From Gekko japonicus (lineage: Eukaryota), in the NCBI RefSeq assembly GCF_001447785.1, contig NW_015167062.1, positions 271,734 to 335,733 on the forward strand: DNA of 64,000 nt, written 5' to 3'. The position numbers and the translations under genes were made by a program. The notes under the pieces are model-generated. The model did no database searches and was not told the origin of the DNA. It was given only the letters and a program-made list of their open reading frames with translations. The number at the start of each line of letters is the position of its first letter. The first letter of the stretch is position 1. Positions 150-61,630 of this stretch are shown here, piece after piece.

Positions 150-1513
150 CACTGGACCCTTTCCAGTCCAGCTTCCACCCGGGCCACAGGACAGAGACAG
201 CACTGGTCACCCTCACAGATGACCTCCAGAGGCATATGGATCGGGGCGGGATGGTGCTGCTGCTGTTGTTGGACCTGTCAGCGGCGTTCAACATGGTCGA
301 TCATCAGCTACTCACCCACCGCCTCGCCAACGTGGGGATCCGGGGGCTTGCCTTGCAATGGCTTGTCTCCTTTCTCCAGGGCTGGGGACAAAGGGTGGCA
401 CTTGGGGAGAAGCTGTCCCAAAGGCACCCACTAATCTGTGGAGTGCCACAAGGGGCAGTACTCTCCCCGATGCTATTTAACACCTATATGCACCCCCTTG
501 CCCAGATTGCCCAGATGCATGGGCTTGGGTGTCATCAATATGCAGATGACACCCAGCTCTATCTGTTGTTGGGTGGTCAGTCGTGCTCTACCCTGGAAGA
601 TCTGGACTGGGCGCTGCAGGACGTGGAGGGCTGGCTGAGTGGCTCAGGGGTAGGGGTCCCACTACCGGCATTCGGTGAGGCGCCGTTGGTGCCAGCACGA
701 AGAATCAGGAGTTGGGGAGTGCTCCTGGATGCTTCCCTTACAATGGAGGCCCAGGTAGCAGCCACTGCCAAGATGGCTGATCAGGCAGTTGGTCCCCTTC
801 CTCGAACGCAATGATCTGGCTTCAGTGATCCACGCTATGGTCACCTTGAGGTTGGACTACTGTGATGCTCTCTACATCGGGCTGCCCTTGGGGCAACTCT
901 GGAAGCTGCAGCTGGTGCAGAATGCAGCAGCCAGGCTGTTGATGGCCTCCCCATGTGGGAGCACATCCAGCCTGTGCTAAAGTCGTTGCACTGGCTTCCA
1001 ATAGTGTTCCGGATTCACTTCAAGGTGCTGGTGTTGACCTTTAAAGCCCTTTATGGTCAGGGACCTGCTTACCTGAGGGACCGCCTTTCCCTGCATGTCC
1101 CCCAGAGAGCACTGCGATCCGGAACACAAAACCGCCTGGCCATCCCCGGCCCTAGGGACGCCAGGTTGGCAGTGACTAGGACCAGGACATTCTCCCTTGT
1201 GGTGCAGGCACTCTGGAATGAGCTCCCCAGTGAGATCAGAGCACTGCAGGACCTCCAACAATTACACAGGGCCGTGAAAATGGAGCTTTTCGCTGGGCAT
1301 TTCAGTAAGAATGCTCTCATTGGTTATGTTACATCTGCACTTTATATATGACACCGCCACTTTAAATGGTTTTAATTGTAAATGCTTGTATTTTATGGAG
1401 ATGTATTTTAGGTATGTATTTATGTTGATTTTAAAACTGTATGTAAGCCGCACTGAGCCGCTTCAACGGAAGGGTGGGATAGAAATCTAACTAATAAATA
1501 ATATATATATAAA
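150..1513 (+). mobile_element. L2-clade LINE, 5'-truncated and frameshifted: RT domain to 3' tail
   Basis: ORFs 236-814 and 953-1351 contain LLDLSAAFNMVDH, GVPQGAVLSPMLFN, YADDTQLY, LHWLPI..RI.FK. The 3' end gtaagccgcactgag...gggatagaaatctaa followed by a TAAA-like tail is typical of L2. Confidence 0.93.
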
Positions 1514-1597
1514 TAGACAGACTGTCTTCACTCAAACTGTTTACAAAACTTCAAGGCAACAGGGGGCAGCTGAGTTCTCCAGCCTTTGAAACTCCAA

Positions 1598-1783
1598 TAA
1601 AGGTAAAGGTAAAGGTTTCCCTTGCTCAAAAGCCAGTCAAATCTGACTCTAGGGTGCGGTGCTCATCTCCATTTCCAAGCCGAAGAGCCAGCGCTGTCCA
1701 AAGACATTTCTGTGCTCATGTGGCTGGCATGACCAGATGCCAAGGCACACAGAATGCTGTTACCTTCCCACCAAAGTGCTGCC
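1598..1783 (-). mobile_element. Sauria-type SINE, 3' part with (ACCTTT)n tail
   Basis: (AAAGGT)3 at 1599-1616 followed by gctcatctcc...ccaagccgaagagccagcgctgtcc...gtggctggcatgac, matching my recollection of the Sauria SINE body. Confidence 0.75.
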
Positions 1784-2221
1784 AATAACAGAGTTCCCGT
1801 TCTGCTTTATGGGATCATAATGCTCTCTGTGTGTGTATACACACACATACTCAGCTCAGTTCTGCAGCCTCATTTCTTTCAGCTGTCCACAGTTACGGAC
1901 AGAGGCAGAGAACTTCTTATAAGCAAACTAGCAAAGCACATTCCCTCATGAGTAGAAACTCCTCTTCCCTGCTGGAGATTTGGTGTTAGGTGGACTCAGG
2001 ATCTGAGCCACCTGTCTCTCTGCTCATGCCCAGCAGAAGGGCTTAGCTGTTTGGTTCCTCAGCTGAGGATCTACATTTTGACTGAGAACTCCTCTCCCCT
2101 GCTGGGGTTGGGGGGGGGATCTCAGGTGGACTCAGGGCTCTGAGCCACCCTGTCTCTCAGCTCACGCCAAGCAGGGGGGCTTAGCTACTAGATTCCTCAG
2201 CTGAGGACCCACATTTTATAT
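1784..2221 (-). mobile_element. Probable LTR with two internal ~130-bp direct repeats
   Basis: Repeats gaactcctc(t/c)..ccctgctgg...ttcctcagctgagga..cacatttt at ~1955-2080 and ~2085-2218. A purine tract (aggaggggtgaga on the minus strand, 2221-2233) abuts the element like a polypurine tract. Confidence 0.45.
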
Positions 2222-2885
2222 CTCACCCCTCCTAAATGTGAACCAATCCCTCTGTGCCATGAGGGTGAAAGTGCTCATTGTGGGAGGAAGAAGTCCTCTA
2301 CCCCCGTATCACAGGCTTCCATTCCCAGACACCACACCCATCCTGCCAGCCCACAGACACCCCCCCAAGTGGGGCATCAACATAGGTATCAGAGCCTGCT
2401 TTCCCTGATCTGTTCCTGGGCCTCTCCACAAAGGAGGAAGAGTGGTTAGCACTGCCCAAAGACCAGTAGTTGATAACACTCTTTGGAGAAGTTTCTGACA
2501 GTGATTCAAAAGGGGAGATGTACCCTCCCCTTCCACAACTCCCTGTTGTTGCTCCTGCCTCCAGTACAGCCCTCCAATGCCCCTCCATGTCCAGTGCCAG
2601 AAAGCAGTTGTCCCTCCTCCCACCATCTTAAGGCCTGGGGTGTCATTTTCAGCCCGCACGTTGGAAAAAATTCTGCTCCCTCCCCAGTGACCCCTGTGTA
2701 GTTGGGTGCCAGGTGTGCCACACCCATGTCCAGAGGGGCACAAACCCCCAACACTTGTCCTCCTCTGTCCTCTGCCAGCACCTGCAAAGGGTGCACCCCA
2801 GTATGTTGCCACCAGAGGAGAGAGTAGTGGCTCCCCCTCTCAGCAGGGAGAAGCAGAGGGGGAGCAGCAGCCCCCCCCAAGAAAG

Positions 2886-3863
2886 TACGGCCGGCCCGAG
2901 GTTGTCCTGCTCTCTAGGCGAGCGCAGATGCCAACCTCCCGGCGGGAGAGAAATAGGGGCGGGAGAGGGAGGAATGAAGTGCAGCTTTCCTCTCGGCCCT
3001 TGCGCACCAGTGTGATTTGTCCCACAGGAGCTATATCAGCAGCACCAGGCAGTGCTGCCGCAGGAACCACCCACAGGAGCATGCCTGGCAGAGCTGCAGG
3101 CGGGGGCGCCGCGGGGGCGCCTCCTCCAAGCCGGCCTCCAAGTAGCCGTTCTCGCAGGGCTTCGCCATCACGCTGCCGGCCACGAGGGGAAAGCGGAAGG
3201 GAAAGGGCAGTGAAGACGTCCGCGGTCTGCCTCAGCGAGTGGAGGGACGAAAGGAAGAGAAAGTTGGAGTGGTGCGCGCCAAACCAGAGCCCGCCGTGCA
3301 CCTTGTGCCTTGTACGCACAGCCGGCAAAAGCTGATGCAAGCCAAAAGCAGTCTGAGCTCAGCCCCGGACTATCCCCCTCCCCCCTGCCTCTGACGGTCT
3401 GCCAGGGCTAGAAGGTGGCGTGCTTCGTCAGGCTGCAGCTGGGACCAGGTTAGGGAGTCTGCAGGAGACCCGACTGCCCCCCTGTCACCCCCCTTCAAAA
3501 GCACGGCTGTGCGGAGGACCCTTAGTGGCCCTTAGCTGGCCGGCGGAGGATCAAACGAGGGGGAGGAGGAGGAGGCAGGGGCAGCCACTGGCCAGCAGCC
3601 GCCCCTGCCTCCACGGTGTAGCTGGCTCCACCTCTGCCCCCTAGCTTGCTCCTCCACCAGCCAGCTACAGCGCCATGCCCTGCCCATGCCACCACCGCCG
3701 CGTGTCCTCCTCCTGCAGCCGGCAGAGCTCCTCCCAGCCCCGGCGCTCCTCCCAGCTGCTGGCCAGGTGCGCTGGCAGCTGCCCCTGCCTCTCCTCCCAC
3801 ACCCTAACGGCCGGCTTGCACTCTAGGTGAAGGCCTAGTTTGCCTAGCGGCGAGACGGCCCTG
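2886..3863 (-). mobile_element. Non-autonomous hAT-type element with GC-rich cargo (same family as 21164-22256)
   Basis: Minus-strand 5' end cagggccgtctcgccgctaggcaaactaggccttcacctagag matches 21164 cagggctggcttgctcactaggtgaactagactttcacccagag. 3' end ctcgcctagagagcaggacaacctcgggccggcc aligns ungapped with ctcgcctagggtgcaaaataagctggggccggcc at 22220-22253. The last 3 nt and the TSD are not preserved. Confidence 0.75.
3031..3168 (-). pseudogene. SLC1A4: Captured N-terminal fragment resembling neutral amino acid transporter A (ASCT1)
   Basis: Manual translation from ATG 3168 (Kozak gtgATGg): MAKPCENGYLEAGLEEAPPRRPRLQLCQACSCGWFLRQHCLVLLI*. This resembles the human SLC1A4 start as I recall it, MEKSNETNGYLD...RCAGFLRRQALVLLTV. 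Similarity stops at the start of TM1. Confidence 0.6.
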
Positions 3864-4021
3864 GTGAGCTGCTGGCATTAAAGTTGTGAGCAAGTGATTT
3901 GGCTGCTGCATAAATTAGTTTGCTCTGGAGCCATCTTTCCTGAGCTAAGACAACAATGTGTGAGCCAGAGGCTAAAAACCTGTGAGCTAACTCACACCTA
4001 CTCAGCTTAGAGAGAACACTG
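3864..4021 (+). mobile_element. hAT MITE, right part (family of 42296-42501)
   Basis: gtgagctgctggcattaaagttgtgagc...ctcagcttagagagaacactg is near-identical to 42344-42501. Confidence 0.8.
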
Positions 4022-5339
4022 CTCCCTGTCATCAGATAGAAACAGAAAAGGAGCAGGAGGCCCCACCAAAAAAGGCTCCCCGTACTCAGGGTGCTGTGAG
4101 TGGTGGGACACCAAGGCAGGCCACCCTTGAAGAGGTCATTTCCAAGAAGGAGGCCCAGGAAGAGGTTCTCGCTTAGTCAGCAAGATGATTGCTGTGTATG
4201 GCCAACCCTTCTCCTTCATGGAGAATATGGCCTTTTGCTGACTGCTGCAACACCTGGCTTCCTGGTACTCTGTCCCCTTGCAGAGGACCATGAGCTGACA
4301 AGTCTTGCCTACCATGCACTGCTCCACTGTGGCGAAAACCATAGAGTTTTCACTCAGATTATTGTGGCCCCGCCCCCAACATGCCCAACATGATTGCGTC
4401 ACTTCCGGGCATGACACCGGGCATGTCGTGTGCCTTGGGGGGTGGGGTTCCCCCAGGGCCCGATCCGCCAGCGGCAGGTAACAGGCCTCTCGGGCGGGGG
4501 TTTCCCTGCTCCCCGGGGGGACTTGGCAAGCGTAGGGGTGGATGAGTTGGACTTCCTGAAGGTCAATCTCCCCTTGCTGGGCTACCCCTCCCTGGACTTC
4601 ATAGGGTAATATCCAGGCCTCCTGTTGTCCCCCTGCATACCTCTCCATTCCTCCTCCTCTTTGGGTGATCTGGCATGAGGCCTGGGGGTTGCGTCTTGGA
4701 ACTTGGGTGGGACAATGGCTGCCTCTGCTGGGTGGGGGTGGGCTCCCTCACCTAACACAACACCTACCTCATGATCACTTTAAATGGAAAACTCTCATTT
4801 CTACTGGTCTGGTGGGGCTGGGGTACCCTGCCTGCCAAACTATCATGGGGTTACTTTGGGGAGCCCCTGTCCTGTCACATGTCTGCCTGTCACAGCTTTC
4901 TTTTGTTGTACCACAAATCACTTTAAATGAAAAACTGATTTCCATTGGTCTCGTGGGGCTAGGGTGCTTGCTAAGCTGTTGTGGCATAACTTTGGGGAGC
5001 TGCTATGGAAACTCTGGGGATGTCTGCCTTTCTGTCCTTTAGAACCTGCAGGCATTGGGGGGATGCTTGCCTTGCTTCTGGTGTCTGGCTGGGGGTCTGC
5101 CCAGGTGAAGTTTCCCTGTGAGTTTGGTGTCATTGTCCTCTTCCTGAGCGAATCCATAGACTCCTGTAACTGCAGCTATCTCTTCCAGAAAGAGCGCTGG
5201 TGAGACCTTGGGGGAGGGGTCCGTAACCCCACATATGTAATCCACCTTCAATTTGGAGAGGCTGTAGAGGAGCAGGCGGAAGGGCTAGGTCCCCTGTGTG
5301 TTTGGTATGTGTAGCTTGCAGGTTGCCCATTCTATACAT

Positions 5340-5977
5340 TGTCAGGATCAGCCAGGCTCTGCCAACCCTGGGGAGGCAGAGGACTATGGGGAAGAGGAAC
5401 AGGCAGGCGAAGGAAGTCCCATCTCACAGTCAGTTACTGACAACCTGCTACAGGAAGCTACTGCTACCCAGCCAAGTGGCAGTTCTGACAGTAGCATCCC
5501 AGCTGCTCAGGCCCAGGGCTCAGAGCCAGGTAGCACCCCACCAACCACCTCGCCTCCCTCGTCTCCAGAACCACTGGAACATAGGTGAAGGAGGGTCTGT
5601 CATGAAATGCTGGAGAGAAGACAGAGTTCACAATTAGCAGCCCAGAGACACCTTGGTCTAGATAGTAAGGAGGAAAGCACACACACCTTCATAATGCAAC
5701 CCAGCTGTGTGACAGGCCTCTCTTCTATAAACAGCAGAGACAGGCTGTGAAAGCAATGCATTCAGATTACCCCCAACCTTGGCACCACTGATTCTGCTTT
5801 GTGACTTTGACTCTTGGACCTTGTCTTTTGGATCTGCTCAGAACTGGCTCTTATTGCTACTCAATGTATGACTCAGGAACTGGACTCTGACCATCCTGTA
5901 CCGGTTTGTGCCTTCACCTCACCTAGCTTGCACCCTAACTATGTGATCCCGCCCCACACCCAGTCTGTTCCAGGACA
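5340..5977 (+). mobile_element. Solo LTR
   Basis: TGTC...GACA inverted ends, 5-bp TSD TACAT/TACAC, and a TATAAA box at ~5726. Confidence 0.7.
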
Positions 5978-6388
5978 TACACTTTTGAACCTGTGCCTGA
6001 CATTTCCCCCAAAAGCACTTTCCTGGCTTGACTTTAGTCCTGTTTGACTTGCAGTGCCACAGTGACTATGGTTCCCCAAAGAAAATGCCCCCAACCTTCA
6101 GTTTCTACTGAGAAATTTTCTTGTATGTAATGGAGGATGGGGCACTTTCTTTGAGGGTCATAGACACTGTAAATCCAATCCTCGCCAAACACGGAGGGCC
6201 AGTAGAGGAGTGTCTGCCAGAGATCCCCTAAGAGTTTGGTGTTTCTAGCACACCAGCTAAGTCACAAATTTCATGAACCAAACCAGTTCATCTAGCATCA
6301 AAAAGTTTGTAATGGTACATGGCTTGTGAACTGCACACACCATGAACTATGAACTGCACATCCTTTTCCTAGTTCATGCCCATCCCTA
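5978..6388. mobile_element. Right part of a degenerate hAT MITE (TAGGGATGGGCA TIR family)
   Basis: Ends with gttcatgcccatcccta. The same TIR occurs at 7880, 15147, 19509/20612, 31601 and 47180/47906. Confidence 0.6.
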
Positions 6389-7879: not shown

Positions 7880-8195
7880 ATAGTGATGAGCATGAACCGG
7901 CTCACAAACTAAAGTTTGTGACCAATTTTGGGCGGTTCATGGTTCGAGAAGTCAAGTTTGTGGCAGGTCACCCAGCACAAACTTTCAAGCTTTTTGTGCT
8001 GGTTCATGAGCAGATACATTTCCAGACAGACTCTCTCCACTCAGTCAAAATGTTTACATAACTTCAAAGCAACAACTTGGAGGGCATGCAGAGGAGCATC
8101 TGGGGGAGGTCCCCTGTGAGTTTGATGTCTCTAGCTTGCACAGGATCCATTCTATACACTCCCGGTTCAGTTCATGGTTTGGTTCGTGGTTCAGA
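7880..8195 (+). mobile_element. hAT MITE fragment (TAGGGATG family)
   Basis: Left TIR tagtgatgagcatgaacc and repeated ggttc(a/g)tgg subterminal motifs. Confidence 0.55.
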
Positions 8196-11769: not shown

Positions 11770-12170
11770 TCCTCCAAGCTGTAATGGATGCTTGCACATA
11801 GCAATTTCTTAACTATGAAGGCTATTGAGGAGATACCTATGGTCACTGAGCAGCACAACCATTCTTTGCTCATAGGATCTGATTTCCCTGTGGCGTGCCA
11901 CTTTAGCCCAGTCCATAGGGGAGAACCATTCAATGTAAATTCACAGCAGTACTTTAAATCATATGAAGACGAATCAAGTGGACTCACAAGAGAAGTGCAC
12001 CTAAGATTGATTAGGAAAAGGCTACTTAAAAAATAGGTCTTGAGAACAAACGTAAAGGAATATGGGGAAATGGTTTCATGAACGTACGGAGTATCAGGCC
12101 AAGTAGGCAAAATGAACAGGTGAAATGGTGACACTGTTCTAAGATCATAGCACTTTAGATTTTTATTTGT
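11770..12170 (-). mobile_element. Degenerate RTEX-like LINE 3' fragment
   Basis: Minus ORF KYCCEFTLNGSPLW...WLCC...SIAFIVKKLLC resembles the C-terminal motif of the copies at 55860 and 62620. Confidence 0.4.
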
Positions 12171-12184
12171 ATTATTATACTTAC

Positions 12185-13434
12185 CAGGTCTCGGTTCCTG
12201 CCGGAGCACACCGGAGGACCACTCCGGAAGTCAGGAGTCCACGGGGCGGACACATAAGCCCCGCCCCCTGCTCCCACCAGCCATCAGTTGGGACACAGTG
12301 TGGGGGGGAATGTTCCCCCGCTTCCCTGAGCCCTGGGGTGGTGGCCTTGGACTCGTAGGGGCAAATTCCACCTCTCGCGCGAGAGGTCATTCTGTCTCCC
12401 CCAGCTCTCCTTCGGGGCTCCTTAAAAAGTTATGGCCACCGCCACTCTTCTCGGCAGCAGCTGTAATGCCCACGCGGGGGCGGGGCGAAATGTTCTCCTG
12501 CCTCCCTGAGCCCCGGGGTGGTGGCCTTGGACTCGTAGGGGCAAATTCCACCTCTCGCGTGTGATGCCGCTCAGACATCACATGCTCTTGGGAGGGGCTC
12601 TTTTAAAAGTTATGGCCGCCGCCGCTGTTCTTGGCGGCAGCTGTGATGCCCACGCAAGGGGGGGGCAAAAGGTTCCCTTGCCTCCCTGAGCCCCGGGGTG
12701 GTGGCCTTGGACTCGTAGGGGCAAATTCCACCTCTCCAGTGTGATGTCAAGCGAGAGGTCATCACACGCGAGAGGTCATTCCGGCTCTCCCAGCTCTCGG
12801 GAGGGGCTCTTTAAAAAGTTATTGCCGCTGTTGCTGTTCTCGGGGGCAGATGCGATGCCCGGCGGGTGGAGGGGGCGGGGCTGGGCGAAAAGTTCTCGTG
12901 CCTCCCTGAGCCCTGGGGTGGTGGCGTTGGACTCATAGGGGCAAATTCCACCTCTCGCGCGTGATGTCATTCTGGCTCCCCCAGCTGTCCTTAGGGGCTC
13001 TTTAAAAAGTTATGGTCCCCGCCTCCTCCACTTTCGGAGGCAGCTGCAACCACCACGGGGGGGTGGGGGAGGACTGCTGAGCTGCCCTTCCCTCCTTTTT
13101 CTGGCTCCACACTAGAACACCGGGCCTGAAAAAGGGCCAGCCAAATGTCAGTTTCGGCCCCTTTATATCCTATGGGCCATTGAAGTCAATGGTAAAAATA
13201 TAGGGTATATTCTGGGGGCTGGAGAGGAGGGAGTTTGAGGGATAGGCTCCAAACTCTCAGGGTAGCTGCTGGAGCCTCTCCCAAAAATACCAACCAGGTT
13301 AGAAGAACATTGGATCAGGGGGTCCAAGTCTACAGGCCCCCAAACAGGTTGCCCCTATCCTCTCTATTGTTCTCTATGATGGGGAAAAAGTAACTTTTCC
13401 CCCACCATAGAGAACAATGAAGGGGATGGGGGCA
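12185..13434. mobile_element. GC-rich non-autonomous DNA transposon with an internal tandem array, running into an assembly gap
   Basis: Starts cagg... and contains the tandem array plus a hairpin attgttctctatgatggggaaaaagt/acttttcccccaccatagagaacaat at 13366-13418. Confidence 0.5.
12300..13030. repeat. Tandem repeat, ~4 units, spacing 180/180/220 bp
   Basis: Core c(c/t)tccctgagccc(c/t)ggggtggtggc(c/g)ttggactc(g/a)taggggcaaattccacctctc at 12321, 12501, 12681 and 12901. Confidence 0.95.
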
Positions 13435-16243: not shown

Positions 16244-17672
16244 CCCAATACACCCTTCCAGGATTTTATAATCCTGCCCTCAGGGACATTATCAACAAGT
16301 CCTTCTATGAGGGGCTGTTCCCAGGGGCACTCAGGGAAGCGATGGTCTGCCCTCTCCTGAAAAAAAGTCACTGGATCCAGCTGAATTGGCTAACTATCGG
16401 CCGGTCTCCAATTTGCCCTATTTGCGTGGCCATTGCACCACACGGTCAGGCGAAGTGACCGAGCTTCGCTCTCAGGAACAATGGGACATGCGGATCCTAG
16501 CCGGCACCTATCGGCAGGCTAGGCTCCTGGCCGAGAGCCTATGGAACTCTCGGCCACTGTAAATAGCCAATCACTTGTGCGTGTGCGTGTTTGGGGAGCA
16601 GGGTTTGTGCATATATAAACCAGCCTGCGAGCTGGTTACTCTCATCTTGTTCTGAGCTGAAATAAAGTATGAGAGCTGAAATCACTAGTAAGTCTCAGTA
16701 CTTTTCAGAGACAGCACTGGTTGCTCTCACAGAAGACCTCCGAAGGCATCTGGATCAAGGCGGTACGGCAGTACTGGTGCTGGTGGATCTGTCGGCAACA
16801 TTTGACACCATCGACCACCAATTACTGATCCACCGCTTCACTGACACTGGAATCCAAGGGCTGGCCTTGCAATGGCTTGTCTCCTTTCTACAGGGTCGGG
16901 GACAGAGGGTGGCATTAGGGGAGCATACAGGGGAGCTGTGCAGGGTGCCTCAAGGGGCGGTGTTATCCCCGATGTTGTTTAACATCTACATGCACCCCCT
17001 TGCCCAGATTGTCTGGTGGCATGGGCTGGGGTGTCATCAGTACTCTGATGACACCCAGCTATATTTGTTGTTGGGCGGCTGGTCCGACTCCAGCCCAGAT
17101 GACCTCAAGTGGGCGCTTCAGGATGTGGCGGGCTGGCTTAGACTAAGCCGATTGAAATTGAATTGAATGAAGATGGAGGTCCTGTGCCTGAGTTGGAGCA
17201 GGTCGGGGGTAGGGATCCCACTACTGACCTTCGGTGGGGTGCCATTGGTGCCAGCGCCGAGGGTTAGGAGTCTGGGAGAGCTCCTGGATCCCTCCCTTAC
17301 CACGGAGGCCCAGGTAGCAGCCACTGCCAAGGTGGCCTTTTACCATCTACAGCTGATTAGGCAGTTGGTTCCCTTCCTCAAATGCAATGACCTAGCAACA
17401 GTGATCCATTCAATGGTCACCTTGAGATTAGACTACTGCAACACTCTCTACATGGGGCTGCCCTTGTCCCAGATCCAGAGGCTGCAGCTAGTACAGAATG
17501 CCGCAACCAGGCTGCTGATGGGTCTCTCTACATGGGACCACGTACAGCCTGTGTTGAGGACACTGCACTGGCTGCCTATAGCGTACCGGATTCGGTTCAA
17601 GGTGCTGGTTTTAACCTTTAAAGCCCTATATGGTCAGGGGCCTGCCTACGTGAGGGACTGCCTTTCCCCACA
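16244..17672 (+). mobile_element. L2-clade LINE fragment interrupted at 16425-16707
   Basis: NYRPVSNLP upstream, then ETALVALTEDL, VDLSATFDTIDH, VPQGAVLSPMLFNIY, YSDDTQLY, RLDYCN and LHWLPIAYRIRFK. Same subfamily as 150-1513. Confidence 0.93.
16425..16707 (+). mobile_element. Young LTR-like insert (U3-R-U5 signals)
   Basis: CCAAT 16567, TATATAAA 16612, AATAAA 16661, ends in CA, CpGs retained. It replaces part of the host L2. Confidence 0.6.
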
Positions 17673-17770
17673 NNNNNNNNNNNNNNNNNNNNNNNNNNNN
17701 NNNNNNNNNNNNNNNNNNNNNNNNCGGCATTCTGTGCCTCCTGAAGCTTATTCAGCCCTTATTCAGCCCT

Positions 17771-18062
17771 TGAGAGCCAGTTTGGTGTAGTGGTTAAGTG
17801 CGCGGATTCTAATCTGTGAGAACCGGGTTTGATTCCCCACTCCTCCACTTGCACCTGGCTGGATGACCTTGGGCAAGCCGTAGTTCTGATAAGAGCTGTT
17901 CTTGAAAAAGAGCAGTTTCTGTCAAGAGCTCTCTCAGCTCCACCTACCTCACAGGGTGTCTGTTGTGGGGAGGGGAAGGGAAAGGAGTTTGGAAGCCACT
18001 CCGAGACACCTTTGGGTAGTGAAAGGCGGGGTATAAATTCAATCTCTTCTTCTTCTTCTTTT
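17771..18062 (+). mobile_element. Squam3-type tRNA SINE with (TTC)n tail
   Basis: gagagccagtttggtgtagtggttaag (A box), ggtttgattccc (B box), tail tcttcttcttcttc. Confidence 0.9.
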
Positions 18063-19508: not shown

Positions 19509-20612
19509 TAAGGATGGGCACAAACTGGTCCCATGAACCATGAACTGAGATCAACCTCCCCCAGTTTGCAAATTGGGTTGGTTTGTGAGGTTCGCAGATC
19601 TTCCCTCCCTCCTTTTTGCTTGTGGTGCCTCCTTGAGGCCAACAGAATAGAAGGGAAGGAGATCTTACAAAAGCCATTTAAAGGGAACATTCCATTAATG
19701 TGTTCCAAATTTTGCAAGCGGCCACTTTGTGCATGTAAAATCCAAGCAGTGAGTTCACTTCCTGGTGAACTCACTGTTGGACTTCACTCGGCCATGGCAC
19801 CTGCTTGCAAAAGCCATTTAAAAGGAATATTTCCTTTAAATGGCTTTTGCAAGCCATTTCAGCAATCCCTTGGAAGCAGAGGGGAGAGAAAGTGGTTGCT
19901 GAAATACTGGAATAACTTGCAAAAAGCAATTTAAAGGGGGGGTTTTCACAAGTCATTTCAGATATTCCTTTCGCTCCTACCCACTTCCAAGCAGGGGGAG
20001 TGGAAGGGATCGTTGTAATGCCTTCTCAGTTTACCCACTGAGTCACGCTGCTGCAGTGAAGCAACTCAGCCAGTCAACTGAGAAGGCATTTAAATGCCTT
20101 CCAAGTTGCAAGTCATTTCAGCGATCCCTTTCACTCCCCCCCCCGGCTTGGAAGCGAGGGCGAAGTGAAAGAGATTGCTGAAATGCTGAAATGGCTTCCA
20201 AATGGGGGGGAGTGAAAGGGATTGCTGAAATGGCTTCCAACTGGGAAGGCATCTAAATGCCTTCTCAGTTGACTTGCTGAGAAGGCATTTCACTGCTACA
20301 GCAGTGGTGGCATGGCTTGCAAAAACCATTTAAGAGATCCCTTTAAATGGTTTTTGCAAACCACGCAGCAGTTGTGGTGTGGCTTAGAGAAGGCATTTAA
20401 AGAGACCGTGGTCTCTTTAAATGCTTTCTCCAGCCCCCTCCACTGGCCCCAGCATGTCTGCCAAAATGAACCACACAAACCCACCTGGAAGGTTCATGGG
20501 AGGTTTGTGTGGCTCATGAGGGCGGGATGCCATGAACCAAGGTTGGCAAACCATGAACCAGGGCCAGTTCATAATGAATTTCAGTTTGTAATTCAATTTG
20601 TGCCGATCCCTA
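19509..20612. mobile_element. Non-autonomous hAT element with internal palindromic subrepeats
   Basis: TIRs taaggatgggcacaaa / tttgtgccgatcccta. Internal hairpins such as ttgcaaaagccatttaaa...tttaaatggcttttgcaa at 19806-19852, and repeated aggcatttaaatgcct. Confidence 0.75.
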
Positions 20613-20775: not shown

Positions 20776-21163
20776 AGCTGCATCTGAGTTAGTTTTCTAA
20801 TTACTGACCAAATTCACTGTAATCTGTTCTGTATCACAAGCTTTGCCTCCTGGGCTGTTTGCTTCTTTCCCGTTTGCTTCATTTGTCTTTAATATTTGCA
20901 GTGACAAGTGAGATTATTGTGCAGAAAATTGGATTGAGAGTTACACTATTGGGGAGGTTGCCTCCTCAGTCTGCAGTCGTGAAGTTGCCTCAGGAGGAGG
21001 TGGGGCCATGGAAAAGGGGGCAAGAGCAGAATGAGTGTCCAGTTTCATTCAGTTTATTTAAAAGAATGTTGGCATCTGAGCAAGTACAAAAAACCTTGCA
21101 TTCACTAGTGATTGCCCACTATTAAGCTCCTCTCCTCACTTCTCCTAAATCTGGGATTGGGAG

Positions 21164-22256
21164 CAGGGCTGGCTTGCTCACTAGGTGAACTAGACTTTCA
21201 CCCAGAGCACAAAGCCATCATGGGGCGCCGGGCTGGGGGCCCACATTCCCTCCCTCCGTTGCCCACTGCCGTGCACATGTGCCTCATCTGCTGGCCCCGA
21301 GCAACTGTGCCGTTGCTCCCTGCCACCTGGCCAAGCCAAGCGCCCTGGCCAGCCTCCCTCCCTCCTTCCCGCCATGGCTGCCATGGCCTGCCTACTCCAT
21401 CGAGCGCCAAGGCGCCCCAACCCTCTGGCTCCCTGCTGCCTGGCATGTGAAGAAGGCCACCAAACCCTCTCAGGTGACGACCTGAGGAGGTGAGGGGGAC
21501 TGAAGTGCTGGGGGGGAGGGGTCCACCCACCCTCTTTAGCTTGCCGCATGGGAGAGTCCTCCTGCTCAGTGCCACGGCCGGTGGGGGCAAGGGGAGGCTA
21601 GTCCTCCTCAACCCTCCTGCCGCTGCTGCTCTCCCAAGAGGGGAGGAAGGACCCCCTGGCAGGATCTGCCCAGAGCCGGTCCCTCTCGCCCAGCAGCAGC
21701 CTCCCACTTCGCCCTGCACCCTGGCTGGGGCCTTGCACTCAGGTGCCGATGGCCCTCCTCCTTCTCCTCTCATGGGCAGCAACTCCCCCCAGGTACCCCC
21801 TTCCCACACAGGCTCACCCTCCCCCTTCTCAGGCCCCACGAGGGAGGGAGGGGGAGAGAGAGAGGGCTGCCTCCTGGCCGAACCTCTCCGAGAGCGTGGC
21901 CCCCAGCCAAGTGGGGCTGGGAGCCCGGGCGCCACCTGCCCCCCCAGTTCTCATCTGGATTTCCCATCTCTCCTTCTCCACGCCCACGGTTGCTGACTCA
22001 AGTCCAGTTTGGGGATTTCCCAGAGATCTGAAGGTGGCAGTGGGGAGGGGAGGGAGCTTGGTGGGGCAGAACATCACCCAGTCCCACCCTCCCCAAGTGG
22101 CCCCTTTCTTCTGGAGAGCGGTTGTGATTCCGGGAGGTCTCCAGGCCACGGCTGGAAGTTGGCACCGGTGCAGGGCCCCTCCCCCACCCTTGAAAATTGG
22201 GGAGGCACCAGAAAGGATCCTCGCCTAGGGTGCAAAATAAGCTGGGGCCGGCCCTG
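21164..22256 (+). mobile_element. Non-autonomous hAT element with GC-rich cargo
   Basis: TIRs cagggctggc / gccggccctg and a perfect 8-bp TSD ATTGGGAG (21156-21163, 22257-22264). Confidence 0.9.
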
Positions 22257-23499
22257 ATTGGGAGTAAAGGACTGCAATGGCTTAATAGCCAGGCAGGTTT
22301 AAATGCCAGAACCTCTCAGCAGAGACAAAAGAGAAGTGCTTCTGTTCAGAAGAACAAAGAGGATGAGAGGGTCTTAATATCCAGGGCATCTTAAATCTCA
22401 CAGCATCTCACAGAGAAAAATGTGAATGTGGGGTCTCTTCGACTGCTGTTTTGCAGAGCCATTTCTTCCTACAAACCATATTCCCTGCTTTATAAAACTA
22501 CTAAAATGTCTCCAGATCCAGAGCTTAGAGGTTTTGTTATTGTCTTCTCTTCCTTGCAGTCGTCTTTAAATCTTCCATATCCTTATCACCTCTTACATCC
22601 TAGATGCATCGGGTTCTATCCCTACCCCTACCCCCCTTCTTTGGGGTGTTGCTGTTTTTATATTACCTTTATTGTGTTGATTTCATTACATTTTAGATGT
22701 TTTACTGCTGTTTTTAAGCTGCTGTGGCTGTTTTTTTAATTATCAGTTGGTTTTGTGGCTATTCTGTCACTAACTACAGATGTTTTATTGCGCTTTTTGC
22801 ATTGTCTTCTTTATACATTTGAAGCTGCCTTGGGAACCTCTTGACACAAAGCTGCAGGATAAAAATAATTTAAATAAATAATCCGTTGTTGCCAATGTCT
22901 CCAAGGTGGACCCTTTCTGATGTGTTCTGGGTGACAAAACCCTTGTGTGTGATTTTGGGGGGGCCCTTTTTTAACTGTATTATCTCTTTCTCCCCACTGG
23001 CCTTCCCTCCTGCCGTGTCTTCCCACCCTCTAAAGTCAGTTCAGAACATGCCTATATCATCCCATCTTTTCCACTCCCTCCCATCATTCTCTGATTAGGT
23101 CACTTTCCCCCTCAGCTCCCTATACTTGACCAGCATTTTGCATTCAAACCAAGTATCTAATTCTCACTATGATGACATCTTCCTCCCCTGAATATTTCTG
23201 TGGTTTCATTCCTTCACACAGGTTCTTGTTCTGTCTTTAAATCATTTCTCCCCACTGTTGCCCTGCAAGGATCTTATAACACTCTCATGGATTTATGAAC
23301 CATAATTAATAAGTGGACTGTGCAATAAGTGTGCCAAGGGAATTGACTGTGTGGTGACCATGCACTGATGCCAGCTACCTGGACTGCAGACACATGCCCA
23401 GTTGAGGAAAATCTCTTCCTGAGACGATGTGCCAGACCAAGAGTGGATCCATGGGTTACCTACCACCAGCAGGGAGGGAGCCAAGCACCCTAGCCACGA

Positions 23500-29980: not shown

Positions 29981-31882
29981 TATCTCTGACCTTGTAAGCT
30001 GCCTATGTAGTGTCTGGCCATCATTTACCCGTGGGATTACTTTCGATTCCCAGCTTAGGCTGTAATGGCCTGGGGCCCCATTCTCCCCGTGCACGGGAGT
30101 CTGGCCGATTGGCCAAGGAGTGGGGGGTGCATACGAATACCCTATATCCCATTATGCTTGTAGGAGTGTAGCTATTCCTAACAGTGACAATGTTAGTGCA
30201 TCTATAGCTCTAGCAATAAAGTATAACCTTATGATAAGTGTGTACTCTTTTGTTTGGCTGTGGAACCTGACAGTTCTGGTCTGATCTCTCTGAGCATTGT
30301 GATAAAATATTCCCAAGATATCTTTCATGGTCTACTGAAAATCTTGGACACACAAAAAAAAATCATATGAGTCTGATCCTCAATGGACCTATTGTCATGG
30401 GGCTGACTTGGTCACTATATGGGGTTGCATTAGAATGACCTCTTACCATTGCCAATTGTAAACAGCCAGACATGTCCTAATAAAGGCCTTTCTATGTTCG
30501 AAATTTGATAAATTAGTAAAATAGTCCGGAAGTGTTGGGGGGGTGCTTGAAAAGAGAGGCAGTTCTTAGAGTACCTAGTAATCCAGTATCAACTTTGACA
30601 CTTAAATCCAACATTCTTTTAATTGAATGTTTAGCTGCCAAGAAACCAAGCCTCCTTAGAGATTCCTCTGAGAATCCAAGTTTGGCCACTACATTACTAT
30701 ATTATTTCTCCATAAGTTAGCTTTCATCTCATCATAATGTTACCCAAAATGGACCCAAACAAAGGGAAACTAGATTTAAAAAGGGTTCCAGAAAGGAATA
30801 ATGCAGGATATTGGTTTGTGTATACCAAGGGTAGATCTCGGTAGGGGTACCCCACAATAAAGTTATGAAGAAAGAGTGGGAAGCAAATGAAGGAGTAATG
30901 GTAAATACAAATATCTTTATTGTATACAGAATAGAATAAAAGGAAAAAAATGCAAAGAACCTACATTAAGCATCTAAGAGCTACTTCCCTAAGCAATCAC
31001 ACACAAGCAAGCAAGAGGGTACTCTTGATAAAAAGGAAAAGGGAGGAAACTTGGATATTTTAGGGAAGGGACATGCAACTTGAAATCCTGGGCTTTAGAT
31101 CTGGAGAGGTCCAGAGCAAACACAGCTGAAGTCCATGGAGCAGAGTGAAGGCGGGTGGGAGGACACCTGTAACACGGTTGCAGGGATGTTGAGGTAGTGG
31201 GCAAACACAGCACACTTTCCATTGAGTTGGGATGGTCTTTTTATGGGAAGAATCCCATAGCTAGACATGTTCCCAGAAACATGATTGGTTCAAGATATGA
31301 GGTTTGAATTTGACTAGGCAGCTTGAAGGTAACCACTGTCAAAAACCGGCAGGAAGATTAGTAGGAACATTTGTGACATTCCAAGGTGGGCTGATCATTG
31401 GACACTTTTAGAATATTGACAAAGAACTGGGAATGAATGATGGGTTTAAATGTCTTCCTGATGGCCCATCCTGGGTGATTCAGATGTTAGGCTGCCTTTA
31501 TCAGTGCATGGATAGGATTAGCCATCCATTTCCAGCTTTACAGCTGGTTCAGCCACGAACCACAAACCGAACCACAAAAATGTTGTTCATGCCCATCCCT
31601 AATTAGGAACTGCTAATAATATCTGAGCAAATTTGTTTTGAATAACTTCTAGCGGCTGTAAATTTCCAACCCCCCAAATCAGTGCACCATACAACAACTG
31701 ATGAAGAACTGTTCAATATGGTTCAATTCCTAAAAAAAAGTGGCAAAAATTAACATAAATTGCTCATTAACCTCAAAACTCTGATGCAAAGGTTTGCAAA
31801 GTTAGTTCTCAAATGCCCATACTTAGGCTGGCTAGTACCACACATCATTTTTTTAACCATTGATACATCAGAGCCACTAAGT

Positions 31883-42295: not shown

Positions 42296-42501
42296 CAATA
42301 TTCCCTCTAAGCTGTGGAGTCTTGTGAGCAAAATTTCTACTTTGTGAGCTGCTGGCATTAAAGTTGTGAGCGAATGATTCGGCTACTGCATAAATTAGCT
42401 TGCTCTGGAGTCATGCTCCCTGAACTAAGGCAAAAATCTGTGAGCTGAAGGCTAAAATTTTGTGAGCTAGCTCACACTAACTCAGCTTAGAGGGAACAGA
42501 G
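42296..42501 (+). mobile_element. hAT MITE
   Basis: TIR caatattccctctaagctg / cagcttagagggaacagag; perfect 8-bp TSD GTGATGGT. Confidence 0.9.
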
Positions 42502-49384: not shown

Positions 49385-49705
49385 CTTACTCATATATATG
49401 CCGGAGCTGTGGTCGTTGCACAGCCGCCACCATTACGACATCGCCTGAAGGAGTCGCTGCAAAATAATGGGACCTGCACCGAGACACCGTCACCAGGAGG
49501 TGGAGGAAAAAAGCCCACGATGAAGAGCCGAGAGAAGAAAGAACGACAAAGTACAACAAGAGCTCTGCTCCGGGTGCCGGTAGGCATTCATCCTCCCCCC
49601 CGTGTATTGTGGCCCTAGATAGGAAAATGTAAATGTCTATGTAAACCACTCCAAGCCTTCAGGAAGGAGCGGTATAGAAGTCTAATATGTAATGTAATGT
49701 AATAT
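49385..49705 (+). mobile_element. L2-type 3' UTR and tail, CpG-rich
   Basis: gtaaaccactccaagccttcaggaaggagcggtatagaagtctaa followed by (TGTAA)n. Confidence 0.55.
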
Positions 49706-49837
49706 AGAGAGTCTCTGGTCAGTGTGTGGGAGGATACAAAATATAAACAATGAAAACAGAAAATGTTTCCTCTGATGCAGTGGTCAGAATCTGAGCAGTA
49801 TTGCAGTTGATTTGCTGTCTCTTTACCTTTTAACTAT

Positions 49838-50203
49838 GGTCTCGGTCATACGGGCCGGATATCGCGGGGGGGAGGTGTGGCTAATTGCCCCGGCACAGTT
49901 TGATACGTGATTACGCGATCAGATTCGCCGGTGGCACAGCACAGGTCCTTCCCTCGGCACCAGCAGGTAAATGAGGGACCGGAGGGGAATGCCGCGCGCC
50001 AGCGCGATCACACCACGGGCGTCTGGAGGCAGCCCGTGGCAAACGTTTACTAGTACCTTGGAGGTACTAGTTTTTAAATGCGCATTGTCGGCAGTAAGCC
50101 ATGGGTGCGCTCCACTTTCCAGATGTTGGGGTGTGATCGTGCCCAGATAATCCGCCCACCTTCCGTGCCTCTCCCGCGGCAACTTTGCCATGTGACCGGG
50201 GCC
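49838..50203. mobile_element. Young CpG-rich MITE with TAT flanks and a central perfect hairpin
   Basis: TIR ggtctcggtcatacgg / ccatgtgaccggggcc; actagtacct-tgg-aggtactagt at 50049-50071. Confidence 0.75.
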
Positions 50204-50272
50204 TATGATATGCTGGAGTTCTATGTGCCTTCAGATCAAAAGAGAAAGTGGTTGCAGAAGTTTATTTTCTTC

Positions 50273-50490
50273 TAGGGTTGCCAACACCAAGTTAGCAAAT
50301 TCCTGGAGATTTTGGGGTAGAGCCAGGGGAGGGCAGGGTTTGGGGAGGGGTGGGATTTCAGTGGGGCATATTATCATGCAGTCCACTCTCCACAGCACCC
50401 ATTTTCTCCAGATGAATGGATCTCTGTCATCTGTAGATGAGTGGTAATTCCAGGGGACCTCCAGGAACCAGCTGGGAGTTTGCAATGCTA
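50273..50490. mobile_element. hAT MITE (TAGGGTTGCCA family); other copies or fragments at ~15230-15460, 15835-16211, 54505-55020, 56405-56730, 58350-58540
   Basis: TIR tagggttgcca / tttgcaatgcta; TSD TTTTCTTC/TTTTCTCC. Confidence 0.8.
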
Positions 50491-58010: not shown

Positions 58011-58651
58011 AGCTAGTTCCACCTACACCTTTGTCCTGCATGGCTATCTCAGTTACAGTTGCCAGATCTCCTCCCACTAACAACCCATCTGCCTGTCATT
58101 GTTTTGTCTGCTGGGGAGAGAAAAATGAAGAAAACTGCTATGGAAGGGTACACTTGCCTGTATCCAGCTGTTACAATGGGAATTCAGGAGGATCCCTCCG
58201 GGTTCTACAAGGAACTGACCCCAGCCACTAGGGAAGGAATGGAACGGTTTTTATTTATATATCAACAGCTTGGGCCTAGAGGCCATAACTACAACAAGTT
58301 CAGTAGCCATCTTAAAAAACAAGCAGCACAGCCTCTTCTTCCCAGACACCAACTCAGGCTTGGAAAATTCCTGAAGATTTGGGGGGCAATGCCTGGAGAG
58401 GGTCACTTGCAGAGAGGAGGAAACTCAATGACAGTGTGATGCCATACAAAGCTGCCATTTCTTCCAGGGGGACTGATCTGTGCAGTCCAGAGATCTGTAG
58501 TAATTCTGAAAGAAGTCCAACCCCCACCTGGACGTTGGTAATCATGTCCTTACCACACCAATGAGATCTATTCATGAGGCAATCCTCACAGAGCAGGACT
58601 TTCCCAATTCCCCCCCCCCCCGCTCACCAAATTCCCTCAATTTTGTTCCAC

Positions 58652-60064: not shown

Positions 60065-61630
60065 CTGCTGGGAGAGAAGGTGTCCTCTAGATACCCCCTA
60101 ATGTGTGGGGTCCCTCAGGAGGCACTTTCTGATGTCATTTAACATCTATATGCACCCCCTTACCCAGCAGGCATGGAGTTCTGGCTTTGGTGTCACCAGT
60201 ATGCTGATGACACCCAGCTGTATCTGTTCTTGGATGGCCACACAGATTCCGCTCCCCAAAATCTGGCCATGGGTTTGGAGGCGGTGGTGGGGTGGTTAAA
60301 AAAGAGCAGACTGAGACTGAACCCAATGAAGACAGAGGTTCGGTGGCTGTAGCTGGGAGGGGGTTTCAGGCCTGAGGCATAGACTTCCTGTTCTTGACCG
60401 GGTGCCTTTGACACTGGTGCAGTCCATCAAAAGTTTGGGCATGATTTTGGATGCCTCCTTTTATATGGAGGCCCAAGTCACACATATTGCCAAGCTGCCA
60501 TTTTTCCATCTGTGTCAGGTTCAGCAATTGGCCCCTCTCCTGTCGCACCCTGACCTAGCCATGGTAATCCATGCAACAGTCACCTCCAGGTTAGACTACT
60601 GTAACTCACTCTATGCTGGCTTACCCTTGAGACTGAACCGGAAACTCCAGCTGATCCAGAATGCAGTGGCGCAAGTCCTGACAGAAATGTCATGGACAGC
60701 ACATATACAACCTGTGCTGCACCAGCTTCACTAAATCCAAACAAGGGGAAAAGACTAGTGTCACAGGAGTCCCAAATATACAAATTCCTCTAGTAGAAAA
60801 CACCATCAAAGATTGCCAAAACAATATATTAAACAATTATAAAGTTGGTGGTGTCACAACAACAACATTTATGCATACTGTAACTGTATTAAGGCATAAG
60901 ATACAATATTTCCTCCTTTGAAAATAAGACATAAAGTCCATGTACTCAGTGTAACTTGATAACTTGATAGGAGCCCACATAGTCATATCATATTCCAAAC
61001 AGCCTTTGCAAAGACACCCAATCGAGACATTTGGAAGATGCGTTTCCTTCCGTTTCAGCAGACCACGAGGTTCATAGTGTAAGGAGCGAAGCATAGGACT
61101 GTCTCCTCCAGTATGTCCCCGGGAGAGTGTCACAGTCCTTGGATAACAATCTGCTGGTGATCCCTGGACCCAAAGATACCCAGCTGTCCTCGACCAGGGC
61201 CAGGGCCTTTTCAGCCCTGGCCCCAACTTGGTGGAACTCTCTGCCATACAACATCAGGGCCCTGCAGTACCTTATGCAATTTCACAGAGCCTGTAAGGCA
61301 GAGATGTTCAGCCAGGCCTTTGGTTGAGGACAGTGATGGCTTCTATCTTGGCTGGGACCCTCCTCCTACTTCTCGTACTCTCTTTCCACCAGATTGTCTT
61401 ATTCATCCTCCCCATACCCACGAGGTGGCCACAGTCTGGAACTGGGAAGAAATTGTAATTTTGCCACTGGATCTTTTTAGATTGCTGGATTAGCATTATT
61501 TATGTACTTATGGTTTTAATGTTTTTGCTATGCGTTGTATATCGCCCAAATATAATAATAACAATAATAACAACAACAATAACAACAACAATAATAATAA
61601 CAACAACAACAACAATAATAATAATATTCA
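60065..61630 (+). mobile_element. L2 LINE 3' fragment with a ~340-bp AT-rich insertion (60734-61075) and (AAT/AAC)n tail
   Basis: YADDTQLY, VTSRLDYCNSLYAGLP, HIQPVLHQLH, RAFSALAPTWWNSLP. Confidence 0.88.

Follow-up and report, generated by a model that had tools for sequence, protein, structure and literature searches.

What is the beginning of an amino acid transporter gene doing among old transposons in a gecko? The DNA in question is a stretch of 64,000 nucleotides from Gekko japonicus, referred to below as the window, and near one end of it, on the minus strand, there is a short open reading frame that the original prediction took for the start of SLC1A4 (ASCT1), carried inside a DNA transposon. 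Our answer runs along similar lines. We think it probable that a non-autonomous hAT-type element, called element A here, captured the 5′ end of SLC1A4, that the captured frame runs into a chance stop codon, and that the fragment is inert.

The reading frame itself is as first described: it occupies 3168-3031 on the minus strand, comprises 45 amino acids and a stop, and translates exactly as noted at the outset. Its start codon had been credited with a strong Kozak context. There is indeed a G at −3 and another at +4, but the same combination is found at 53 of the 363 ATG-started ORFs of at least 45 aa in the window, and so this feature carries little weight. No other ATG lies upstream, in 3169-3400.

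Identity was established by protein comparison. When 5.8 billion proteins were searched, one of five candidates emerged as the sole match, the neutral amino acid transporter A (SLC1A4) of the gecko Heteronotia binoei (E 1.7e-8), to which the fragment is identical at 34 of 47 positions (72% aa). Orthologs were gathered with this Heteronotia protein as the query, which gave 736 matches, and 12 of the best 120, all of them named reptile proteins, were aligned with the fragment. The closest among the best 120 of the 736 is the SLC1A4 of Gekko japonicus. Codons 1-44 align with it ungapped, 36 of the 44 residues being identical (82% aa), and tblastn with that protein returns an E-value of 4e-18. Similarity of this order puts the homology far above chance, and the SLC1A4 origin first proposed is borne out. 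The two best matches among the 120 proteins compared are both gecko SLC1A4. The fragment also shares a two-residue gap near the N-terminus with Gekko and Heteronotia, both members of the Gekkonidae; the gap is absent from Euleptes (Sphaerodactylidae) and from the other nine reptiles aligned, and the donor was thus an SLC1A4 gene of the gekkonid type.

Other searches with the peptide returned nothing of substance. Pfam assigned it to no family, the SDF domain (PF00375) included, and showed nothing of relevance in the neighbouring frames, and among PDB sequences there were two chance matches (E 0.65 and 1.3) and no SLC1 chain. A HMMER search of 1.84 billion representative sequences yielded no related short or chimeric protein, in a set where real SLC1A4 was missed, too; the only match there, a tandem-repeat protein, was judged to be chance.

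The homology stops abruptly. Codons 1-44 (3168-3037, minus strand) specify the cytosolic N-terminus and the first residues of the first membrane helix, TM1, whereas the final residue and the stop codon (3036-3031) derive from beyond the breakpoint, in sequence that is not SLC1A4: orthologs differ at positions 45-46, and the tblastn alignments end at 3037. Truncation at the beginning of TM1, as had been anticipated, is therefore what we see. Measured over 19 residues, hydropathy in the peptide peaks at 1.14, compared with more than 1.6 from residue 38 onward in the ortholog, so only the first TM1 residues are present. Exon 1 of vertebrate SLC1A4 presumably extends far beyond codon 44, and if so the break falls in mid-exon. 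In all, 44 of about 530 residues were captured. These are orthologous to gekkonid SLC1A4, a protein of Pfam's SDF family, but lacking both an SDF domain match and a complete membrane helix the fragment would not, judged from its sequence, be a transporter. To meet a stop within two codons of the breakpoint has a chance of ~3.5% at the local stop frequency; a low prior of this kind tells somewhat against our reading, though it does not call for selection.

The remainder of the gene is not found in the window. Downstream exons in the vicinity had been named as one finding that would overturn the idea of a capture, but tblastn with 11 orthologs detects no SLC1A4 beyond residue 44 anywhere in the 64 kb, and a profile HMM finds one significant SLC1A4 domain in the window and no more, the next having an iE of 3.9. 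To the eye, 2649-3035 seemed to continue into something like the later SLC1A4 helices; neither tblastn nor the HMM gave any signal there, and this candidate was dropped.

On the other side of the start codon lies a CpG-rich leader (3169-3340, minus strand), putatively the 5′ UTR or proximal promoter of SLC1A4. In 3101-3300 the observed/expected CpG ratio reaches 0.97, where the window as a whole has 0.23, and in this respect the leader is as it was originally described. It is not some 200 bp long, however, but about 160: the ratio is 0.96 in 3169-3330 and then falls to 0.32 in 3331-3400. There is no second copy of the leader in the window. At 3333-3340 (plus strand), 165-172 nt upstream of the ATG, is an exact match to the CARE (C/EBP-ATF, ATF4-type) 8-mer TGATGCAA. 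It was noticed post hoc, and it occurs five times in the window, both strands considered, with 0.018 occurrences expected per 232 bp. We use CARE in the sense of the ATF4-bound element defined in the accessible part of PMC8491098, and Slc1a4 appears, in the accessible part of PMC13190340, among the Atf4-regulated transporters of mouse cortex. The literature matches listed include no mapped CARE at SLC1A4, and what is available of PMC7796306 is uninformative on the point. The motif is a hint, short of proof, that the leader was taken from the 5′ end of SLC1A4, perhaps with part of the promoter.

How might such a piece have been copied? In our opinion it would most likely have been copied by template switching from DNA in the course of gap repair, as has been proposed for animal Pack-TIRs. 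It is conceivable, instead, that the template was RNA, and that a partial cDNA of the 5′ end of SLC1A4 mRNA was pasted into a resident transposon while a break was being repaired, by the reverse transcriptase of a LINE. Relics of such reverse transcriptases do lie in the window, and all of the proven homology is within transcribed sequence. With no intron in the piece, and no base that is demonstrably promoter, DNA and RNA templates are not directly separable. Retrocopies, however, do not usually look like this: a piece from the 5′ end only, with no A-run, is the reverse of the normal outcome. Downstream of the fragment there is neither an A-run nor a poly(A) signal, and there is no consensus splice donor past the breakpoint. 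The piece spans no exon junction, provided that exon 1 is as long as we take it to be, and a retroduplicate would look no different in this respect. The CARE at −165 would also favor DNA capture, should it prove to lie upstream of the transcription start. An RNA template is, on this showing, unlikely, and a DNA-templated capture by element A is the reading we continue with.

The case that there is an element to do the capturing depends on a second one. Short terminal inverted repeats (TIRs) together with an 8-bp target duplication are the signature of the hAT superfamily, and 18 kb or so along the window, at 21164-22256, sits an intact example, element B, 1093 bp in length. Its 10-bp TIRs agree at nine of the ten positions, and it is flanked by a perfect 8-bp target duplication (21156-21163 and 22257-22264). 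Element B contains no SLC1A4. Its two ends, nevertheless, recur on either side of the SLC1A4 fragment and delimit element A (2886-3863), which is GC-rich and 978 bp long. One terminus of A and the subterminal part adjoining it (3817-3863, minus strand) look intact and match B's 21164-21211 at 36 of 48 positions, with the first 6 nt identical. The other (2886-2922, plus strand) matches the opposite end of B at 28 of 37 positions (27 of 34 by blastn, E 0.007), with two of the first three bases changed. When background windows were scored in the same way, the four ends having been excluded, none of 42,012 and none of 42,076 did as well as these two matches. Taken over the terminal 10 bp, A agrees with B at eight positions at 3863 and at eight at 2886, B standing in for a consensus.

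Element A is less presentable than its sister. Its own termini agree at seven of ten bases, and its two 8-bp flanks differ, so that there is no target duplication; A is therefore delimited indirectly, through the one sister copy, B. The interiors of the two elements are unrelated: aligned, they score 45, and 100 shuffles averaged 39 and reached 55. Within the GC-rich interior of A there is an imperfect palindrome at 3526-3675 (67% over 168 columns by self blastn, E 4e-10). Part of B's interior (22041-22164) is a decayed piece of a repeat that is also found at 50341 and 59499; seven frames of B were scanned against Pfam with no match, and the rest of the interior could hold captured sequence of another kind.

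Such blemishes invite the thought that A is not one element at all, but two ends left by different insertions, or brought together by a rearrangement, around an SLC1A4 piece that came from some unrelated small duplication. The missing target duplication, the damaged left terminus and the interior unlike B's all lean this way, as does an unexplained 53-bp repeat across the insertion, to which we return below. Against it, the ends of A are B's two different ends, not the same end twice; they stand in the right order and orientation; they are 978 bp apart, where B's are 1093 bp apart; and in the whole 64 kb there are no such ends other than these two and B's two. Coincidence on this scale is very unlikely. 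We regard A as one element, and the original view that the capture took place inside a DNA transposon as upheld by the position of the fragment, which lies between two transposon-type ends that match those of B.

Element A did not land on empty ground. It interrupts two older insertions, one nested within the other, exactly at its ends. Immediately to its right is a truncated hAT-type MITE (3864-4021), 85% identical over 155 bp to a full-length copy at 42296-42501 that is bounded by an 8-bp flanking duplication. The copy hit by A has lost its first 48 bp, and these are not to be found in 1501-3900, which points to a deletion beside the left end of A. Immediately to the left, broken off at 2885, is the relic of a BED zinc finger (2632-2885, plus strand) belonging to an older hAT-type transposase gene. 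The evidence for the finger is a Pfam zf-BED match (E 0.012; 16 bits, where the cut-off is 20.6) and a first match in the Atlas, at 0.96, that falls in a zf-BED cluster; in a homolog search none of 17 candidates passed. On the far side of the MITE, 4176-4343 (plus strand, two in-frame stops) is probably a continuation of the same relic, since we take it to resemble hAT transposase, and it has no match in Pfam or the PDB.

The larger structure to which these pieces belong appears as a decayed, plus-strand, hAT-like relic at 2258-6388, containing the BED finger and closed on the right by a TIR-like end (6377-6388). This end has no partner to the left, exact or with one mismatch, anywhere upstream in the window, and the outer boundaries of the relic are accordingly undefined. 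Further TIR-like ends, related to it, are found at 7881, 10367, 15147, 19509, 20601-20612 and 31590-31601. Two-copy direct repeats lie in or beside the old relic, at 1957-2217 (~130 bp, 79%) and 4774-5000 (~90 bp, 76%). The 53-bp repeat mentioned above is of another sort: the segment that ends where A begins (2833-2885, plus strand) is found again where the MITE ends (4022-4074), across both nested insertions, with 40 of the 53 bases (75%) the same, and none of 6,248 background windows is as similar. It may be a repeat internal to the old element, or else the scar of a rearrangement.

One claim made originally goes astray here, namely, that the fragment lies in the same orientation as the element. 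Element A has no coding strand with which an orientation might be compared, and the hAT relic that surrounds it, the sole coding transposon relic thereabouts, is on the plus strand, so that the SLC1A4 piece is antisense to it.

Unless we have the layers in the wrong order, events would have unfolded as follows. The plus-strand hAT with the BED finger was there first, and the MITE inserted into it. Element A then inserted into the MITE. At some stage element A would have copied some 300 bp of the host's SLC1A4 5′ end, comprising the CpG-rich leader and codons 1-44, and a later deletion alongside its left end would have carried away the first 48 bp of the MITE together with the target duplication. 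The captured frame would be closed by chance at the second codon beyond the breakpoint and could specify, at most, a peptide of 45 residues without a complete membrane helix. What is left would have been losing its methylated CpGs to mutation; probably it is inert, immobile now and silent.

Elements that have taken up host sequence in this fashion are known in animals as Pack-TIRs. The survey in PMC8277862, in its available portion, reports 370 of them in 100 animal genomes; 208 are hAT, most are single-copy, and the median length captured is 224 bp. Of the single-copy ones, 56.9% lie within 15 kb of the parent gene. Against our reading, there is no SLC1A4 parent in our window, which extends, it is true, for only 3 kb on one side of the fragment. 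Element A has the anatomy of a Pack-TIR: non-transposon sequence between the two ends of one TIR element (with B as stand-in for the consensus), and an interior within the 100-5000 bp range, of which 132 bp is proven homology and ~300 bp is homology plus leader. As for the hAT superfamily, the TIRs are suitably short (9/10 in B and 7/10 in A over the terminal 10 bp), and the 8-bp target duplication, though absent from A, with its signs of deletion at the left flank, is perfect in B. On sequence grounds, then, A is a candidate Pack-TIR.

Its nearest counterpart is Pack-hAT-N8_XT of Xenopus tropicalis, which according to the same portion of PMC8277862 carries 291 bp of the 5′ UTR of CAPSL and is present in three copies. 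In both, the ends of a non-autonomous hAT-type element enclose a few hundred bp of the 5′ part of a host gene, and the length taken up by A is close to the 224-bp median and to the frog's 291 bp. They differ in that the piece in element A takes in the ATG and codons 1-44, and possibly a promoter motif; that A has no target duplication; and that one copy of it is known, in the window, where the frog has three. Plant Pack-MULEs, Pack-TYPE elements and maize Ds are comparable, too, so far as the accounts at hand describe them, in that pieces of host genes replace the transposase of TIR elements, with variable interiors inside one family of ends. The host here is a vertebrate, instead, and spread to many copies and the shuffling of multiple genes are, in those accounts, features of the plant elements.

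Do the CpGs of the fragment say something about its age? The original prediction had supposed either that the capture was recent or that the DNA was unmethylated. Element A is richer in CpG than element B (observed/expected 0.29) and than the surrounding relic (0.06-0.09). This fits an element A younger than the relic, and to that extent a recent capture is plausible, though it bears no date. The unmethylated alternative fares less well. Eight amino acids distinguish the fragment from Gekko japonicus SLC1A4, and in five of the eight an arginine has become Gln, Cys or Trp, each a single CpG transition away. In functional gecko orthologs compared with Gekko, changes of the same class (Arg to Gln or His) account for two of 24 differences (Fisher p 0.005). 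The W34 and C30 of the fragment occur in none of the 12 orthologs. Five of eight becomes unremarkable if CpG mutation is given a tenfold weight (p 0.08), and one of the five Arg losses is common to Heteronotia. The sites are patchy, as well: all five fall within codons 25-38, where one CpG remains, while nine CpGs are kept in codons 1-24 and 15 in the leader. Because five of the eight differences fit CpG decay, the idea that the fragment is unmethylated is doubtful.

The same patchiness might be read as preservation. The leader with its CARE could act as a promoter or enhancer responsive to amino acid stress, or an RNA or short peptide from the fragment might affect SLC1A4. The leader and codons 1-24 have a CpG ratio of about 1 among decayed neighbors, the CARE 8-mer is perfect, Slc1a4 is Atf4-regulated in mouse (PMC13190340, as available), and about 30% of the Pack-TIRs examined in the available portion of PMC8277862 are transcribed. 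Youth alone also predicts the retention of CpGs, however. The long ORFs scanned hold no host-gene Pfam domain, a test that short exons would escape; the 1.84 billion representatives, blind to real SLC1A4 as they were, offered no short or chimeric relative; and no CARE is mapped at SLC1A4 in the literature matches listed. A captured piece that works is, in our estimation, most unlikely, and decay of an inert one is the reading we prefer.

That we are looking at SLC1A4 in its proper place, disrupted or misassembled, is barely credible, for although the window's mere 3 kb downstream of the fragment could place the later exons outside it, the break comes in continuous, highly conserved coding sequence whose following residues were not found, the piece lies within element ends within a MITE within an older hAT relic, and there is no N gap within 10 kb.

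Nor does the fragment have the bearing on retroviruses that was at first read into it, through the service of SLC1A4 and SLC1A5 as receptors for RD114 and D-type envelopes. In ASCT2 the proposed docking region for envelopes is extracellular loop 2, the exact site being unresolved (PMC8220723, in the part available). The window does not contain that loop, and the peptide falls short of a full membrane helix. What the fragment shares with truncated or soluble receptor decoys goes no further than the family of the parent gene. The part captured is the N-terminus, which is cytosolic and gives a decoy role no structural footing. The fragment says nothing about retrovirus resistance.

What the locus does offer is a clear squamate candidate for a gene fragment taken up by a transposon of the cut-and-paste kind. 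The animal-wide survey, in its accessible parts, reports none from squamates, probably on account of thin annotation of transposable elements: the rows for lizard and garter snake show no Pack-TIRs, from 77 and 3 annotated DNA elements, respectively (PMC8277862). The word gecko is absent from its available text and 12 supplementary files, SLC1A4 is absent from the supplements, and the literature matches listed include no report of SLC1A4 captured in a transposon. Element B, with the same ends and a different interior, suggests that this gecko family may yield more captures. One could go further, and imagine element A as one of many gecko Pack-hAT copies that bear the CpG-island promoter, CARE and start codon of SLC1A4, and that spread starvation-responsive promoters or enhancers through gekkonid genomes, the leader kept unmethylated by bound factors while the coding tail decayed. 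Were the motif functional and the element multi-copy, a regulatory module that responds to stress could be dispersed in this way. We think the scenario distinctly unlikely; as a single decayed copy, the capture changes little.

Elsewhere, the window is a mixture. Its most CpG-rich stretch is 49400-50300 (observed/expected 0.78, locally up to 0.96), the minus-strand frames of which resemble, we assume, Harbinger-type transposase; the one ORF scanned there had no Pfam match. At 12150-12950 there is a tandem array, rich in GC and in CpG (CpG ratio 0.63), whose repeat unit measures some 180 bp, and an open frame of 140 codons, plus strand and unremarkable in sequence, runs from 58017 to 58439 without a Pfam match. 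Pfam matches in 55 further long ORFs were confined to one relic of a reverse transcriptase and to low-complexity sequence. LINE relics lie at 113-1351, 16666-17790 and 60330-60734; the first two match Pfam RVT_1 (E 8e-22 and 6e-18, respectively) and share 72% identity.
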